From NCBI GenBank assembly GCA_033977065.1, contig JAXCHI010000003.1, positions 64,001-128,000 on the forward strand: a stretch of DNA of 64,000 bases. Direction: 5' to 3'. Shown here piece after piece: positions 57,584-62,455 of the stretch. The position numbers and the translations under genes are program-made. The DNA comes from Candidatus Algichlamydia australiensis (GTDB lineage Bacteria > Chlamydiota > Chlamydiia > Chlamydiales > JAJFMI01). Positions within the stretch are counted from its first letter, which is position 1. The number at the start of each line of letters is the position of its first letter. Below the pieces are notes generated by a model. It had not been told where the DNA came from, searched no databases, and worked only from the letters and a program-made list of their open reading frames with translations.

Positions 57584-57606
57584 CGGCTTTAAAAATAGAC
57601 AATTAT

Positions 57607-58365
57607 CTACTGTTTTTCAGGAATGAGATCCCACTTTGCAAGAAGCTTTTTAAAGTTGCTCTCGTGCTGGAGTTTATCTAGGCCGCGGTTGAAGCGATAC
57701 ATAAGCTCGGGCTCCTCATCTTTAAGTGTCACAAGGCGAAGACCGTCGTTGCCAAAAGGGCCTAATACTATTTTGAGTTGTCCCTTGTAAAGATCTTCAA
57801 TATAGCCAATGGCAGCAAGGTTTGGTACCATCACTCCATCGTAATGACCGAATTCTACTTTGCTTAACGCTTCGGGAAGAGATTCAAAAAAGCGGATAAG
57901 TACATCTTTATGCGATTCCACAATCTGTGCTGCTTCTGTGTGCATCTCAACTGCCACAGATTTGCCCTTCATATCTTTCCAAGACTTCACTTTCTCTTTC
58001 TGCCGCACAATCAGCACAGAGCCCGTATTGATGATACGGTCGGAAAAAGAGAATTCATCTTTTGTGATGAGATTGACCGGAAGACCGGAAAGAATCCCCT
58101 CATAGAGTCCTTTTTGCAAACCATCCACAACATTATCCCAACTCATTGTGATGCGAACAAATTCGATTCTCTCTTTTCTTCCTATTTTTTTTAGTAAATC
58201 ATTTGTAAAAGCGAATACATTATAATCTTTTCCTAAAAGTTCAAGAGGAAAGAAACTAGGATCTACCCCAATACGATAGACTTTTCCTCTTGGTGAGCAG
58301 GAAAAAGTCACGAGTAGAAGAAGTAATAAAGATAATGTAATTCGTTTCATAATCTTATTTTGCAC
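57607..58365 (-). CDS. Amino-acid ABC transporter substrate-binding lipoprotein (family 3)
   Basis: Lipobox TFSC, GVDPSFFP, family 3 substrate-binding pattern ending LLAKW. Confidence 0.8.
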   Translation of the reverse strand: MQNKIMKRITLSLLLLLLVTFSCSPRGKVYRIGVDPSFFPLELLGKDYNVFAFTNDLLKKIGRKERIEFVRITMSWDNVVDGLQKGLYEGILSGLPVNLITKDEFSFSDRIINTGSVLIVRQKEKVKSWKDMKGKSVAVEMHTEAAQIVESHKDVLIRFFESLPEALSKVEFGHYDGVMVPNLAAIGYIEDLYKGQLKIVLGPFGNDGLRLVTLKDEEPELMYRFNRGLDKLQHESNFKKLLAKWDLIPEKQ

Positions 58366-58401
58366 AGTAACATAGGCATACCTCTTTCGAAAAGTGGATT
58401 G

Positions 58402-58431
58402 TTGACAAGGAGATTCAAAAATCAGTACGAT
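58402..58431 (+). promoter_or_regulatory. Putative promoter of fcl-gmd
   Basis: TTGACA-N18-TACGAT. Confidence 0.5.
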
Positions 58432-58463
58432 GCCTCATTAAAGCTTAAAGTCGAAGGCTTGAA

Positions 58464-59450
58464 ATGAAAAAGTTTATTCTAGGGTTGATCGTATTCGCAT
58501 TTCCCCTAATTGCAGGTGAAATCCCACGCGACGCAAAGGTTTATGTTGCTGGTCATAGAGGTCTTGTGGGCAGCGCTATTATGCGTCATCTGAAAGAGGA
58601 AGGATTTACAAATATTATAACCCGTACTTCAAGCGAACTCGATTTGCGCGACCAAAAGGCTGCTAATGATTTTTTTGCAAAAGAGAAGCCTGAGTACGTC
58701 TTTCTTGCAGCAGCTAAAGTAGGCGGAATTTTGGGAAATTGTTCTGCGCAAGCCGAATTTCTCTATAACAACTTGATGATTGCGACGAGCACTATCAAAG
58801 CAGCTCATAATCATGGTGTAAAGCGCTTTATTAACCTCGGCTCCTCTTGCATCTATCCCCGCATGTGCCCGCAACCAATTAAAGAAGAGTACTTACTAAC
58901 AGGCGCTTTGGAAGAGACTAACTACGGCTATGCCATTGCAAAAATTGCAGCGATCAAACTTTGCAAAGCACTAAATGTGGAAAATAAAACGCGTTTTATC
59001 TCAATTATGCCGTGTAACTTATATGGTCCAAACGACAACTATGACCCCAAGACAAGCCATCTCTTTCCTGCAATGATTCGTAAAATTGTCGAGGCAAAAG
59101 AGAATGGGGATCCTACTTTTGTTATGTGGGGAACAGGAAGTCCAAAGCGCGAATTTATGCACTCTGATGATGTAGCACGCGCTTCTCTCTTTTTAATGGA
59201 AAATTACGATGGCGATGAGATTGTAAACATTGGCTGGGGAAAAGATATCTCTGTGCTCGACTTCACCAATATGGTCAAAGAAGCTGTTGGGTATGAGGGC
59301 GAAATTGTTCTTGATCCCACAAAGCCTGATGGAACTCCACGAAAAATCATGGATGTCTCTCGCTTAAAATCTTTAGGTTTTGAGCCGAAAATTTCTTTGA
59401 GAGAGGGCATTGAGAGAACTGTACAAGATTTTCTTAAGGAGCATCGATGA
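58464..59450 (+). CDS. fcl: GDP-L-fucose synthase with signal-peptide-like extension
   Basis: [36 protein letters not shown]. Confidence 0.95.
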
Positions 59451-60535
59451 GAAAGGTTTGGCTTTTCTTTCTTCTCCCTCTTGCTCTTTTTGCACAGAAA
59501 AAGGCGATCATCTTCGGTATTACAGGCCAAGATGGCGCCTATCTAGCAGAATTTCTATTAGAAAAGGGCTACGAAGTGCACGGTGTAAAGCGCCGTGCCT
59601 CTTTTCGTAATACACAGCGCGTTGACCATATTTACGAAGAGCCGCAGGCAAAATCAAGGCACTTCTATCTCCACTATGGGGATGTTACAGATGCCCTTGG
59701 TATTGCAAAACTCGTTCATCAAATTGAACCCGATGAGATCTACAACCTAGCAGCCCAAAGCCATGTGCGCCTCTCATTTGAGATCCCTGACTACACAAAT
59801 GATGTCAATGCAGGCGGTCCTTTGCGCATACTAGAAGCGATCCACGCTCTGGGAATGGAAGATAAAGTCCGTTTTTATCAAGCTTCTACAAGCGAGATGT
59901 TTGGAGCCGCGTCTCCTCCTCAAAACGAGCAGACGCTTTTTTATCCAAGATCCCCTTATGCTGTTAGCAAACTTGCTGGGCACTGGCACACAATCAATTA
60001 CCGTGAAGCTTACGGTATCTTTGCTTGCAGTGGGATTCTGTTTAATCACGAATCACCAAGACGTGGCGAGACCTTTCTCTCTCACAAAGTGACAAAAGCT
60101 GCTGCACGCATTAGTAAAGGCCTGCAAGAAAAACTCTATATCGGCAATCTCAATGCGCGCCGCGACTGGGGATATGCACTGGATTATGTCGAAGCCATGT
60201 GGTTGATGCTCCAGCAAAATAATCCTGACGACTATGTGATTGCAACAGGAGAATCGCACTCTGTTCGCGAATTTTGTGAACTCGCTTTTTCATTTGTAGG
60301 TATTGATCTTGCCTGGAAAGGAGAAGGTCTTGATGAAGTGGGTTACGACCGCAAAACAGGACGAATTATTATCGAGATTGATGAGCGCTACTTCAGACCA
60401 ACAGAGGTTGATTTCTTACGCGGTGACCCTTCTAAAGCAATCAAAAAACTCGGTTGGAATCCACAAAAAACTTCGTTTAAAGAGCTTGTGGAGTTAATGG
60501 TGCGACATAATTTAGAAGAGATTGTAGACGTATAA
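59447..60535 (+). CDS. gmd: GDP-mannose 4,6-dehydratase with signal-peptide-like extension
   Basis: [40 protein letters not shown]. Confidence 0.96.
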
Positions 60536-60561
60536 ATTATTTTTTTGATAGTTTGGGGCCG

Positions 60562-61515
60562 ATGTTAAAAAAAATATTATATATTGGTCTATTTGCTCTT
60601 TTTACTACAGGGTGCGCGAAAAAGGAGGGGTTTGCCGTACGTAAAATCACCTCTTCCCATGCGCCAAATGAAAAGTGGGAAACCGAAGCCATTAGCGGTG
60701 ATCAGCTCGAAGAGCTGAAAACTCTTTTTGACGAGCCTTTTTACTACTTGGCAAAAGGGTGCCAATCCTACGCTTTTGTCTCAGCAGATGGGAAAACAGT
60801 TCTCAAGTTTTTTCGCCAGCGTCGCTTGGGGCGCCACACATGGCAAAACGCGCTTCCTCTTCCTCACTCCTTAATGAAAGGGTATGCGAAAAAATTTGAG
60901 GAGGGTCTTGCGCAGAGGGAAAAAGAGTTTTCTGGTTATAAAGAGGCTTTTGAAAACTTGCGAGATGAGACGGGACTTGTCTACCTCCATTTAAATCCTA
61001 CTCACGAGCTCTTAAACAAAAAAGTAACCCTTTATTATAAAAATAAGCGCGTTGACGTAATCGATATCGACAAGTTTGAATTTGTTTTACAAAAGCGCGC
61101 TATACTTGGCTTTGATCATTTAGAAGATCTCATGAAGAGAGGAGAACAGAGGCGCGCTCTTAACTCTATCTGTTCGTTTGTCAACCTGATCATCAACCGC
61201 TGCCAAAAAGGTTATGCTGACTATGACCAACAATTCTCTAAAAATTTTGGTTTTATAAATGACCAAGCAATTGAAATTGATATTGGCTACCTAGAAAAAG
61301 ACCCCTCCATGAAAAGTGCGGATAAATGCCAGACTGAAGTAGAATCGGTAACCGAGTGGGTTTTAAATTGGTTTTATGAAAATCATCCCGAAACCCTACC
61401 AAGAGTAAAAGAGATCATCAAAAGAACCGTTAATGAAAAATGCGCTTGTCAAGGGAGCGATCTCTCTACACAAACTCTGCCAACCCAAGAGGAATCCTCT
61501 TCACAATCCGACTAG
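60562..61515 (+). CDS. Lipoprotein with protein-kinase-like fold
   Basis: Lipobox TTGC; YLAKGCQSYAF, VLKFF, D.D.....N, IDIG. Confidence 0.6.
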   Translation: MLKKILYIGLFALFTTGCAKKEGFAVRKITSSHAPNEKWETEAISGDQLEELKTLFDEPFYYLAKGCQSYAFVSADGKTVLKFFRQRRLGRHTWQNALPLPHSLMKGYAKKFEEGLAQREKEFSGYKEAFENLRDETGLVYLHLNPTHELLNKKVTLYYKNKRVDVIDIDKFEFVLQKRAILGFDHLEDLMKRGEQRRALNSICSFVNLIINRCQKGYADYDQQFSKNFGFINDQAIEIDIGYLEKDPSMKSADKCQTEVESVTEWVLNWFYENHPETLPRVKEIIKRTVNEKCACQGSDLSTQTLPTQEESSSQSD

Positions 61516-62455
61516 CCCTCGTATACTCATATTTTCTACAACAGGGGTAGGTGATACTCTCTGGGGAACGCCAGCTATCCGCGCTATAAAAAAAACTTTT
61601 CCAGAAGGAAACATAACTGTTGTCACAAGCAAAGCGGGAAAAGAGCTTCTTTTGCACAATCCCTATGTAGATCAAATTATTCCCTTTGACGCACCACACT
61701 TAAAAAAAACTATCCAATCATTGAATGCGGACACCGCTCTGATTTTTCACATCTCACAGCGTATCATGATGCCATTGAGCTACTTCTCAAATGCGAGCCG
61801 TATCGTAGGATCTGCTGGCATCAATAAGGGACTAGATAGTCTACTCACACACTGCTTAGAGAAAAAATATGAACATGAAATTCAGCGCCGCCTGAGACAA
61901 GCTGAACTAATAGGAGCTTCCCCTGATGGAAGTGAAATGGAAATTTTTCTTACAGATACAGAACGCTCTCACGCACCTGCCCTCCCAAAACCTCTTATTG
62001 CAATTCACCCAGGAAGTAAAGATCTTTTTAAACAGTACCCCCCTCACCTATTTGCCGAAGTGGGGAAAAAATTATCTGGAACAGTTGTAATTACAGGAGG
62101 AAAAGACGAAGTCGCCCTTTGTGAAGAGGTTGCTAACGCTATTCCTGGTAGCACTTCTCTAGCAGGAAAATTCTCTTTACGAGAGCTTGCCGCCCTCATC
62201 GAAAAATGCAATCTTTTTATTACAAATGATACAGGACCTATGCATATCGCCTGTGCAATGAAAACAAAAACCATCGCTCTTTTTGGGCCCACTGATCCAA
62301 AACTCTGCGGTCCCTATCAAAATGAAAATACAACTGTTTTGCAGCGCTCGCCAACCTGCACGCCCTGCCTAAGAAAAAAATGTTTGGATCCTTTTTGTAT
62401 GCATCAAATTTCGCCATATGATGTGGTAAATGAGATTTCATCACTTATAGGGTAA
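61433..62455 (+). CDS. Glycosyltransferase family 9 (heptosyltransferase-like)
   Basis: GVGDTL, IHPGS, ITNDTGPMHIA, LFGPT. Confidence 0.92.
   Translation: MKNALVKGAISLHKLCQPKRNPLHNPTSPRILIFSTTGVGDTLWGTPAIRAIKKTFPEGNITVVTSKAGKELLLHNPYVDQIIPFDAPHLKKTIQSLNADTALIFHISQRIMMPLSYFSNASRIVGSAGINKGLDSLLTHCLEKKYEHEIQRRLRQAELIGASPDGSEMEIFLTDTERSHAPALPKPLIAIHPGSKDLFKQYPPHLFAEVGKKLSGTVVITGGKDEVALCEEVANAIPGSTSLAGKFSLRELAALIEKCNLFITNDTGPMHIACAMKTKTIALFGPTDPKLCGPYQNENTTVLQRSPTCTPCLRKKCLDPFCMHQISPYDVVNEISSLIG

Follow-up and report, generated by a model that had tools for sequence, protein, structure and literature searches.

GDP-fucose enzymes with predicted Sec-type signal peptides in environmental chlamydiae

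The fcl-gmd locus and its enzymes

In a 64,000-nucleotide stretch of the Candidatus Algichlamydia australiensis genome (the window; G000:C3:64001-128000, where G000 is the source genome, 1.80 Mb and 93.4% complete), the adjacent genes fcl and gmd encode the two enzymes predicted to convert GDP-mannose to GDP-L-fucose, and both proteins begin with an extension that resembles a Sec-type signal peptide (Table 1). The source genome contains one copy of each gene, and the gmd ATG overlaps the fcl TGA as ATGA. Gmd passes the curated family threshold of TIGR01472 (cut-off 415 bits). Fcl falls below the NF047922 cut-off of 500 bits, yet this is by far its best family, and its best solved homologs are GDP-fucose synthases. 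The closest named homologs of Gmd are labelled Chlamydiales (84% identity) and Simkaniaceae.

By sequence, all of the key residues are present, and the preliminary description of this DNA was right in calling the catalytic motifs intact. Gmd contains G24-G30 (GxxGxxG), T148/E150, and Y171xxxK175; Fcl contains G30-G36, S128/C129, Y156xxxK160, and H199, comprising a Ser-Tyr-Lys triad and a Cys/His epimerase pair. These positions presumably match the catalytic residues of the E. coli enzymes. An AlphaFold model of Gmd, built from a 25-sequence alignment, has the normal GMD fold of an extended short-chain dehydrogenase/reductase (SDR), in which the extension forms a separate, lower-confidence helix (residues 2-13) before beta-1. 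Phe23 (codon 59513-59515) stands where Gmds usually have Thr. Thus, Gmd and Fcl are, as judged from motifs and fold, ordinary family members and intact GDP-fucose enzymes. They share SDR fold, motifs, gene pairing, and translational coupling with the cytoplasmic Gmd/Fcl of E. coli (1db3/1bsv) and Brucella (7kf3/7ll6) and with eukaryotic GMDS/FX; unlike those enzymes, the source pair has predicted signal peptides, Phe for Thr, and no manC or O-antigen cluster.

Table 1. Features of the fcl-gmd locus, in window positions
Feature	Position	Strand	Basis
fcl, GDP-L-fucose synthase, 328 aa, catalytic motifs intact	58464..59450	+	PDB 1bsv/7ll6, E ~1e-92; NF047922, 434 bits; motifs
gmd, GDP-mannose 4,6-dehydratase, 362 aa, Phe23 for usual Thr before GxxGxxG	59447..60535	+	TIGR01472, 551 bits; TM (template modelling score) 0.89 to 7kf3
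Predicted Sec/signal peptidase I (SPI) signal peptide of Fcl, probable cleavage after A17 or G18	58464..58517	+	Sequence features, homolog alignment
Predicted Sec/SPI signal peptide of Gmd, 16 aa, probable cleavage after A16	59447..59494	+	Sequence features, homolog alignment; separate modelled helix
Candidate sigma70-like promoter, TTGACA-18-TACGAT, 5' of fcl	58402..58431	+	Among three best sites (10/12); weak
GAAGG, Shine-Dalgarno-like, 6 nt 5' of fcl ATG	58453..58457	+	Sequence
AAGGAG ribosome-binding site of gmd, within fcl 3' end, 5 nt before gmd ATG	59436..59441	+	Sequence
Divergent ABC solute-binding lipoprotein (SBP_bac_3); synteny marker	57607..58350	-	Also beside locus in G218, G128, G245, G306
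Lipoprotein-like protein, no family match, 3' of gmd	60562..61515	+	Also adjoins gmd in G218
Glycosyltransferase family 9 (GT9) heptosyltransferase-like gene without signal peptide; synteny marker	61433..62455	+	Profile matches, synteny

The N-terminal extensions are closer to cleavable signals than to anchors

Signal calls were made by a heuristic rule and a feature comparison, and the term signal peptide is used here in that sense. Alignments with solved homologs begin only at residues 18-25 of Fcl and 17-19 of Gmd. The extensions of 16-18 residues are shaped, by the heuristic, like Sec signal peptides, with an n-region charge of +2, hydrophobic spans of 13-15 residues, and A or G at -1. The basic n-region, hydrophobic core, and small -1 residue initially reported for both proteins are thus present. 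At -3, Gmd has Leu in place of Ala, a feature shared by several exported proteins of the source genome. No in-frame ATG, GTG, TTG, CTG, or ATH lies between codons 1 and 21 of gmd, which, together with the AAGGAG site and the overlap with the fcl stop, is exactly as had been described. For Fcl, the alternative starts in the first 35 codons fall within the extension, except for codon 35 itself, which is beyond the Rossmann strand. The RmlB-, RmlD-, HldD-, and GalE-like SDRs of the source genome have no comparable extension.

We compared 51 signal-bearing Gmd and Fcl proteins with 38 exported-family proteins, which were pre-selected with the same heuristic, and with 16 N-terminal anchors, the latter two sets being from the source genome. 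The median hydropathy of the best 19-residue segment was 1.63 in Gmd/Fcl, 1.42 in exported proteins, and 2.31 in anchors (p = 5e-5 for Gmd/Fcl versus anchors); the source Gmd and Fcl, at 1.7-1.8, lie below the anchor median, and the ranges overlap. Hydrophobic spans were 15 residues in Gmd/Fcl, compared to 14 in exported proteins (p = 0.65) and 16 in anchors (p = 0.015). The Gmd signal ends in PLALFA-QK, an outer-membrane protein (OMP) of the source genome in PVCLFA-QK, and NamZ in PFLLFA-KI. P-x-LFA was considered as a common motif and rejected, since it occurs in only 5 of the 51 proteins and is not diagnostic. Compared to homolog P0002, the Gmd extension is identical at 7 of 16 positions and the core at 283 of 324; the extension diverges faster than the core, and its n-h-c layout is kept.

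These features bear on the alternative that the extensions are uncleaved anchors or amphipathic tethers, which would hold cytoplasm-facing enzymes at the inner membrane and leave substrates to be imported by transporters. The cores span only 13-15 residues in the source pair (the median uncharged run is 16), are far less hydrophobic than true anchors, and end in small residues, frequently with a Pro or an acidic linker; they resemble the signals of OMPs, NamZ, TolB, Tsp, and Mip of the source genome. Pulling the other way, the Gmd/Fcl values for charge and hydropathy fall in between those of the two comparison sets, Lys or Arg directly follows the hydrophobic stretch in many Gmds (QKK in the source Gmd), and 15 of 52 extensions have an uncharged run of at least 19 residues. 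Anchoring would also avoid the cofactor problem considered below, cytoplasmic Gmd/Fcl without manC occur in family f17 (see below), and the source genome encodes EamA/DMT transporters. On balance, we consider anchoring improbable and the extensions closer to cleavable signals than to anchors. A membrane-tethered pathway, which had been raised as a variant of export, becomes less likely given such short, less hydrophobic extensions.

Two other routes were rejected. Neither extension has an RR motif and TatC was not found in the source genome (the control was positive in 11 of 14 genomes), which excludes the Tat route; neither extension contains Cys, which excludes the lipoprotein (signal peptidase II) route. 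Cysteine enrichment, as a disulfide adaptation in Gmd, was not found (2.8 versus 3.2 Cys).

Signal-bearing Gmd and Fcl are widespread among chlamydiae

gmd is present in 159 of 401 sampled genomes of the phylum. The loci of all 159 were taken and 156 were classified, three being truncated; extra gmd copies in about eight genomes were left out, and the heuristic was overridden manually in three cases (G300 and L067 removed, G276 added). Signal-bearing Gmds number 41, in 37 of the 156 classified genomes and 13 families, compared to 124 signal-less ones. The proposed survey of chlamydial Gmd and Fcl thus finds that the trait is not private to the source genome. gmd was not detected in any of the 25 genomes of g5, a genus with small genomes. 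Outside the chlamydiae, a signal is found in 1 of 79 complete Gmds of named genomes (L114, an unclassified bacterium) and in 0 of 60 Fcl-like proteins of named genomes. A named Babeliales Gmd (P0078) carries a signal; another Babeliales gmd-fcl pair, beside manC, does not (L106).

All 21 Fcl copies examined in signal-Gmd genomes are signal-bearing, compared to 0 of 18 Fcl-like proteins in other gmd clusters. Eleven of the 21 adjoin a signal-gmd, and the other 10 lie elsewhere, in 10 out of 27 additional genomes with a signal-Gmd. No fcl was detected in 17 of the 37 signal-Gmd genomes, and a GT11 gene is still present in 12 of these 17, which fits completion of the pathway by a host enzyme. Separately, one signal-bearing Fcl homolog adjoining gmd (L156:6574-7488, in G204) has a degenerate Rossmann glycine motif and is possibly inactive or non-reducing.

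The Thr-to-Phe change before GxxGxxG occurs in 36 of 41 signal-bearing and 0 of 202 signal-less Gmds from genome loci, and in 49 of 52 signal-bearing and 1 of 168 signal-less database homologs. By this association, it is a marker of the signal-bearing Gmd clade. Its linkage to the extension, the retention of the trait in 41 Gmds and 21 Fcls of 13 families, the lack of a usable downstream start in the source Gmd and Fcl, and the signals on PAPS (3'-phosphoadenosine 5'-phosphosulfate) synthases and GT11s described below together largely refute the notion that the extensions lack a function, are vestigial, or stem from faulty gene calls, with the proteins starting at the Rossmann strand. Some homologs do have a possible downstream start, and about 2% of arbitrary ATG stretches are signal-like: the strict rule that picks out both enzymes also picks out 262 of 11,792 non-start ATG stretches of the genome (2.2%). 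We regard an artefact as very improbable.

In core-only trees, the signal-bearing Gmds cluster, with the source genome's copy unstable. Quick free trees grouped the source Gmd with an Acidobacteriota sequence and did not recover strict monophyly. With two divergent G216 copies set aside, trees that constrained the signal-Gmds together scored 29 and 59 log units higher, and the approximately unbiased test did not reject them (p = 0.77 and 0.85); a single Gmd origin is therefore favoured. All 21 signal-Fcls fall in one group with 97% support, plus three outside sequences. Moreover, the gene order glgP, solute-binding protein (SBP), (fcl), gmd, GT9 is common to the source genome, G128, G245, and G306, and the order SBP, fcl, gmd, GT9 to the source genome and G218; this synteny spans three families. 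We favour one old gain per enzyme, followed by inheritance and frequent loss, as the simplest reading of trees and gene orders. The earlier argument from two gains in consecutive pathway steps would then be right in kind and wrong in age, because the gains appear not recent or local, but old and inherited across 13 families.

A larger set of signal-bearing glycan genes

Judged by their predicted N-termini, the Gmd and Fcl signals belong to a far broader set of glycan enzymes with signals. Neighbours are signal-like in 73 of 268 cases around signal-gmd, compared to 23 of 195 around signal-less gmd. Operons in G240, G129, G257, G332, and G285 encode signal-bearing GT11, NodZ/GT23, GT6, GT2, GT32, UDP-sugar dehydrogenase, SDR epimerases, and FkbM methyltransferases, and several operons are almost wholly signal-bearing and also hold CAP59-like and GT47-like proteins. 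The pattern extends to further glycan enzymes. GT11 was detected in 24 of the 37 genomes with signal-Gmd; of 31 GT11 sequences scored, 24 are signal-bearing. Adenosine 5'-phosphosulfate (APS) kinase occurs in 9 of the 37; all eight full-length bifunctional ATP-sulfurylase/APS kinases (PRK05537), or PAPS synthases, are signal-bearing (L307-L314, in G100, G115, G112, G214, G270, G208, G114, and G278), one stand-alone kinase lacks a signal, and one copy is broken. In G270, the PAPS synthase gene lies directly after a signal-bearing fcl (L410).

A scan of the signal-flagged proteins of the source genome found 12 sulfotransferase matches, 11 of them over the Pfam cut-off. One region (G000:C3:406363-428413; L165, L166) holds about 20 signal-bearing glycan genes, including six GT2, two GT32, one GT6, seven sulfotransferases, and unclassified GT-B families, whose signal-bearing proteins lie at C3:415350-427575. 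One unclassified GT-B family has more than 2,000 homologs, some of them named proteins of Parachlamydia and Babeliales, and 101 of the top 120 are signal-like. Two signal-bearing families without known assignment were classed as GT-B-like, with no donor assigned, and their nearest clusters are mostly viral; for a third, a single-sequence fold had a mean confidence (pLDDT) of 44, too low to use. None of 17 queried proteins matched PHROGs.

Other usually cytoplasmic, cofactor-dependent enzymes of the source genome also have signal-like N-termini. These are an FNR/CysJ-like flavoprotein, HPRT, S-adenosylmethionine decarboxylase, an aromatic aminotransferase, an APH-type kinase, and LicD (G000: C2:145397-146242, C2:80349-80963, C4:440520-440930, C3:309766-311061, C2:173357-174271, and C3:474182-475126, respectively). 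In families f30 and f21 (L147-L149, L164), the recurrent neighbours of signal-gmd are small signal-bearing proteins of no assigned family (about 150 aa, often in tandem), a GT-like gene, and a gene of the sulfatase family, and homologs of the small-protein and GT-like genes adjoin each other at G000:C3:463291-465085.

Substrate supply and secretion machinery

manC was not found in the source genome (93% complete) by four methods; its two PF00483 proteins are RmlA and GlgC. PAPS synthase was not found there either, despite the sulfotransferase matches. Searches for manC gave no match in 25 of the 37 genomes with signal-Gmd, compared to 13 of 119 others, counts in which kin are not independent and many genomes are incomplete. 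None of 19 ManC proteins examined (14 + 5) has a signal. The check for manC that had been suggested thus detects none in the source genome and signal-less ManC elsewhere. The signal-less chlamydial gmd genes examined lie mostly beside signal-less manC and GT4 genes. The source locus is not of the O-antigen or colanic-acid type, its neighbours being the SBP, the lipoprotein-like protein, and GT9, with no manC in the genome. The source genome encodes GspD, GspE, and GspF of a type II secretion system (T2SS) and LepB, signal peptidase I.

In signal-less gmd-GT4-manC clusters (L131-L134 and L139, in G033, G050, G056, G147, and G087), an EamA/DMT transporter adjoins or lies near manC. EamA/DMT is the superfamily of eukaryotic nucleotide-sugar transporters.

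A proposed route of export and its alternatives

Gmd recycles bound NADP, whereas Fcl uses up NADPH and PAPS synthase uses up ATP. Because of this consumption, the destination of the enzymes must exchange with host cytosolic pools. We propose that Gmd and Fcl are made as Sec precursors that signal peptidase I would cleave, and that the mature enzymes would leave the cell, most likely via the T2SS, and reach the inclusion lumen, the host cytosol, or both. At that destination they would fold, bind host NADP(H), and convert host GDP-mannose to GDP-L-fucose. From host-derived or locally made donors, co-exported glycosyl-, sulfo-, and methyltransferases would assemble glycans bearing fucose and sulfate, whether in the inclusion, on the surface of the bacterium, or on molecules of the host. 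Cleavage, export, use of the T2SS, destination, origin of the substrate, and identity of the glycan are all inferences in this scheme. Export past the inner membrane, with lumen, host, and periplasm taken together, seems probable from the sequence features; we judge the chances of the specific route, in which Sec and the T2SS bring the enzymes to the lumen of the inclusion or the host cytosol and host GDP-mannose and NADP(H) are used, to be evenly balanced. The original idea of an exported pathway stands in part, as one probably fed by host GDP-mannose. It gains from the lack of a detected manC, the T2SS and signal peptidase I genes, and the signals on Fcl that accompany those on Gmd.

Several observations weigh against this scheme. 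The signal calls are heuristic and include three manual corrections. The 19-residue hydropathy of the extensions is somewhat above that of exported proteins (p = 0.005), and the stretch of 18 residues that would follow the cleavage site carries more positive charge (median net charge of 0 versus -1, p = 6e-5). The source Gmd and Fcl are each net +1 over these residues, a value of at least +1 being found in 6 of 38 exported controls, and the source Gmd carries +2 in its first five mature residues, with two lysines directly after the predicted site. A basic early mature region can slow Sec export. manC is present in 12 signal-Gmd genomes, and five f17 genomes (G064, G101, G166, G215, and G255) have signal-less Gmd/Fcl with no manC detected. 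The f17 case implies that lack of manC does not prove export; GDP-mannose import into the cytoplasm is possible in these genomes. The source genome is 93% complete. GT10, GT11, and NodZ fucosyltransferases were not found there, in PF01531 and PF00852 searches run without a positive control, and tblastn with GT11/NodZ homologs and a custom GT11 profile gave no match (best E = 0.42). Finally, the sequence data separate the periplasm from neither the inclusion nor the host cytosol, and T2SS signals are not recognisable in sequence.

The same signal evidence would fit Gmd and Fcl that are exported by Sec and stay in the periplasm, with no second export step needed. The periplasm would then work like a Golgi, supplied through outer-membrane pores with nucleotide sugars, PAPS, ATP, and NADPH from the host, and the bacterium would decorate its own envelope there. 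The source genome encodes many beta-barrel OMP-family proteins, its FNR/CysJ-like NAD(P)H flavoprotein, which is signal-bearing, could regenerate NADPH on site, and gmd adjoins the GT9 lipopolysaccharide (LPS)-core gene in five genomes. However, Fcl, PAPS synthase, and UDP-sugar dehydrogenase would need stoichiometric NADPH, ATP, and NAD+ across the inclusion and outer membranes, given the limits of outer-membrane pores, and the genomes with signal-Gmd and GT11 and no Fcl are easier to explain where host Fcl is available. We regard periplasmic retention as rather unlikely, although less so than anchoring.

Returning to export beyond the cell, we suggest, tentatively and with somewhat less than even confidence, that environmental chlamydiae and some Babeliae may run an exported "bacterial Golgi", in which NADPH- and ATP-dependent donor-making enzymes (for GDP-fucose, PAPS, and UDP-glucuronate/xylose) and glycosyl-, sulfo-, and methyltransferases would be secreted into the inclusion or host cytosol and there turn metabolites of the host into fucosylated and sulfated glycans of eukaryotic type. 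In the Golgi lumen, transferases, sulfotransferases, and some nucleotide-sugar SDRs (membrane-anchored UXS/UXE/GAE) act on imported donors, and in eukaryotes GMD, FX, and PAPS synthase stay in the cytosol or nucleus owing to their need for NADPH or ATP. Golgi-lumen glycosylation thus acts beyond a membrane, as the chlamydial system would; by contrast, the chlamydial system has predicted signals on the donor-making steps too. Chlorovirus GDP-fucose pathways reportedly rely on virus GMD/GMER that act in the host cytosol on host GDP-mannose, with no export signal needed.

Gehre et al. (PMC4829429) describe luminal glycogen synthesis by C. trachomatis from host UDP-glucose. As in the scheme proposed here, bacterial carbohydrate enzymes there use a host nucleotide sugar outside of the bacterium. 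The glycogen system involves type III secretion and only glucose polymerisation, whereas the chlamydial system considered here has predicted Sec signals on NADPH- and ATP-needing donor synthesis and on many transferases. The Sec/T2SS substrates CPAF, HtrA, CT311, CT795, and Ptr of C. trachomatis reach the inclusion lumen or cytosol (PMC6717882), and the signal-bearing Waddlia Ndk2, a normally cytoplasmic enzyme with a gained signal peptide, reaches host compartments (PMC13318545). Such proteins are single effectors or proteases rather than a multi-step pathway, and Ndk2 has a cytoplasmic paralog, unlike the single gmd and fcl here.

We found no description of signal-bearing Gmd, Fcl, or PAPS synthase in the literature; supplements lay outside the scope of this search, and per-protein SignalP tables there may flag them. 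Term look-ups in PMC9666466, PMC11070183, and PMC11317633 gave no match to fucose, sulfotransferase, glycosyltransferase, or signal peptide, and passages of PMC3482391, PMC6561590, PMC11046441, and 10.64898/2026.03.27.714854 contain nothing on point. The predicted pathway is apparently a conserved, exported, and undescribed variant of a known one.

Nucleotide-sugar and PAPS synthesis are textbook cytoplasmic processes. If the proposal is correct, a compartment beyond the bacterial cytoplasm would hold NADPH, ATP, and GDP-mannose, the signals being present in a quarter of gmd-bearing chlamydial genomes, and the view of the inclusion as a metabolic compartment would extend from glycogen to complex glycans. 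The chlamydial T2SS would gain a large and specific class of candidate substrates, and bacterium-made fucosylated or sulfated glycans would be expected in protist and animal hosts, where they could matter for mimicry, attachment, and the formation of coats. It would also be an error for metabolic reconstructions to assign these genes to LPS synthesis in the cytoplasm.

Flanking sequence and other observations

The promoter candidate in Table 1 is weak, because the promoter-like sites across the searched sequence (9) equal the shuffle mean (9.0); neither promoter nor terminator counts exceed chance. The lipoprotein-like protein downstream of gmd has no Pfam, NCBIfam, or PHROG match, and its family has four paralogs elsewhere in the genome (G000:C2:385546-393025). 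Contigs from two dinoflagellate metagenome runs, which belong to one study and are possibly the source of the window DNA itself, show zero substitutions or indels compared to the window over 57600-61500. Elsewhere in the source genome, F-type conjugative tra genes (TraF, N, U, K, E, and H) lie at G000:C1:357-17561 and C1:84165-85602 on an 87-kb contig, which is probably a plasmid or an integrated element.

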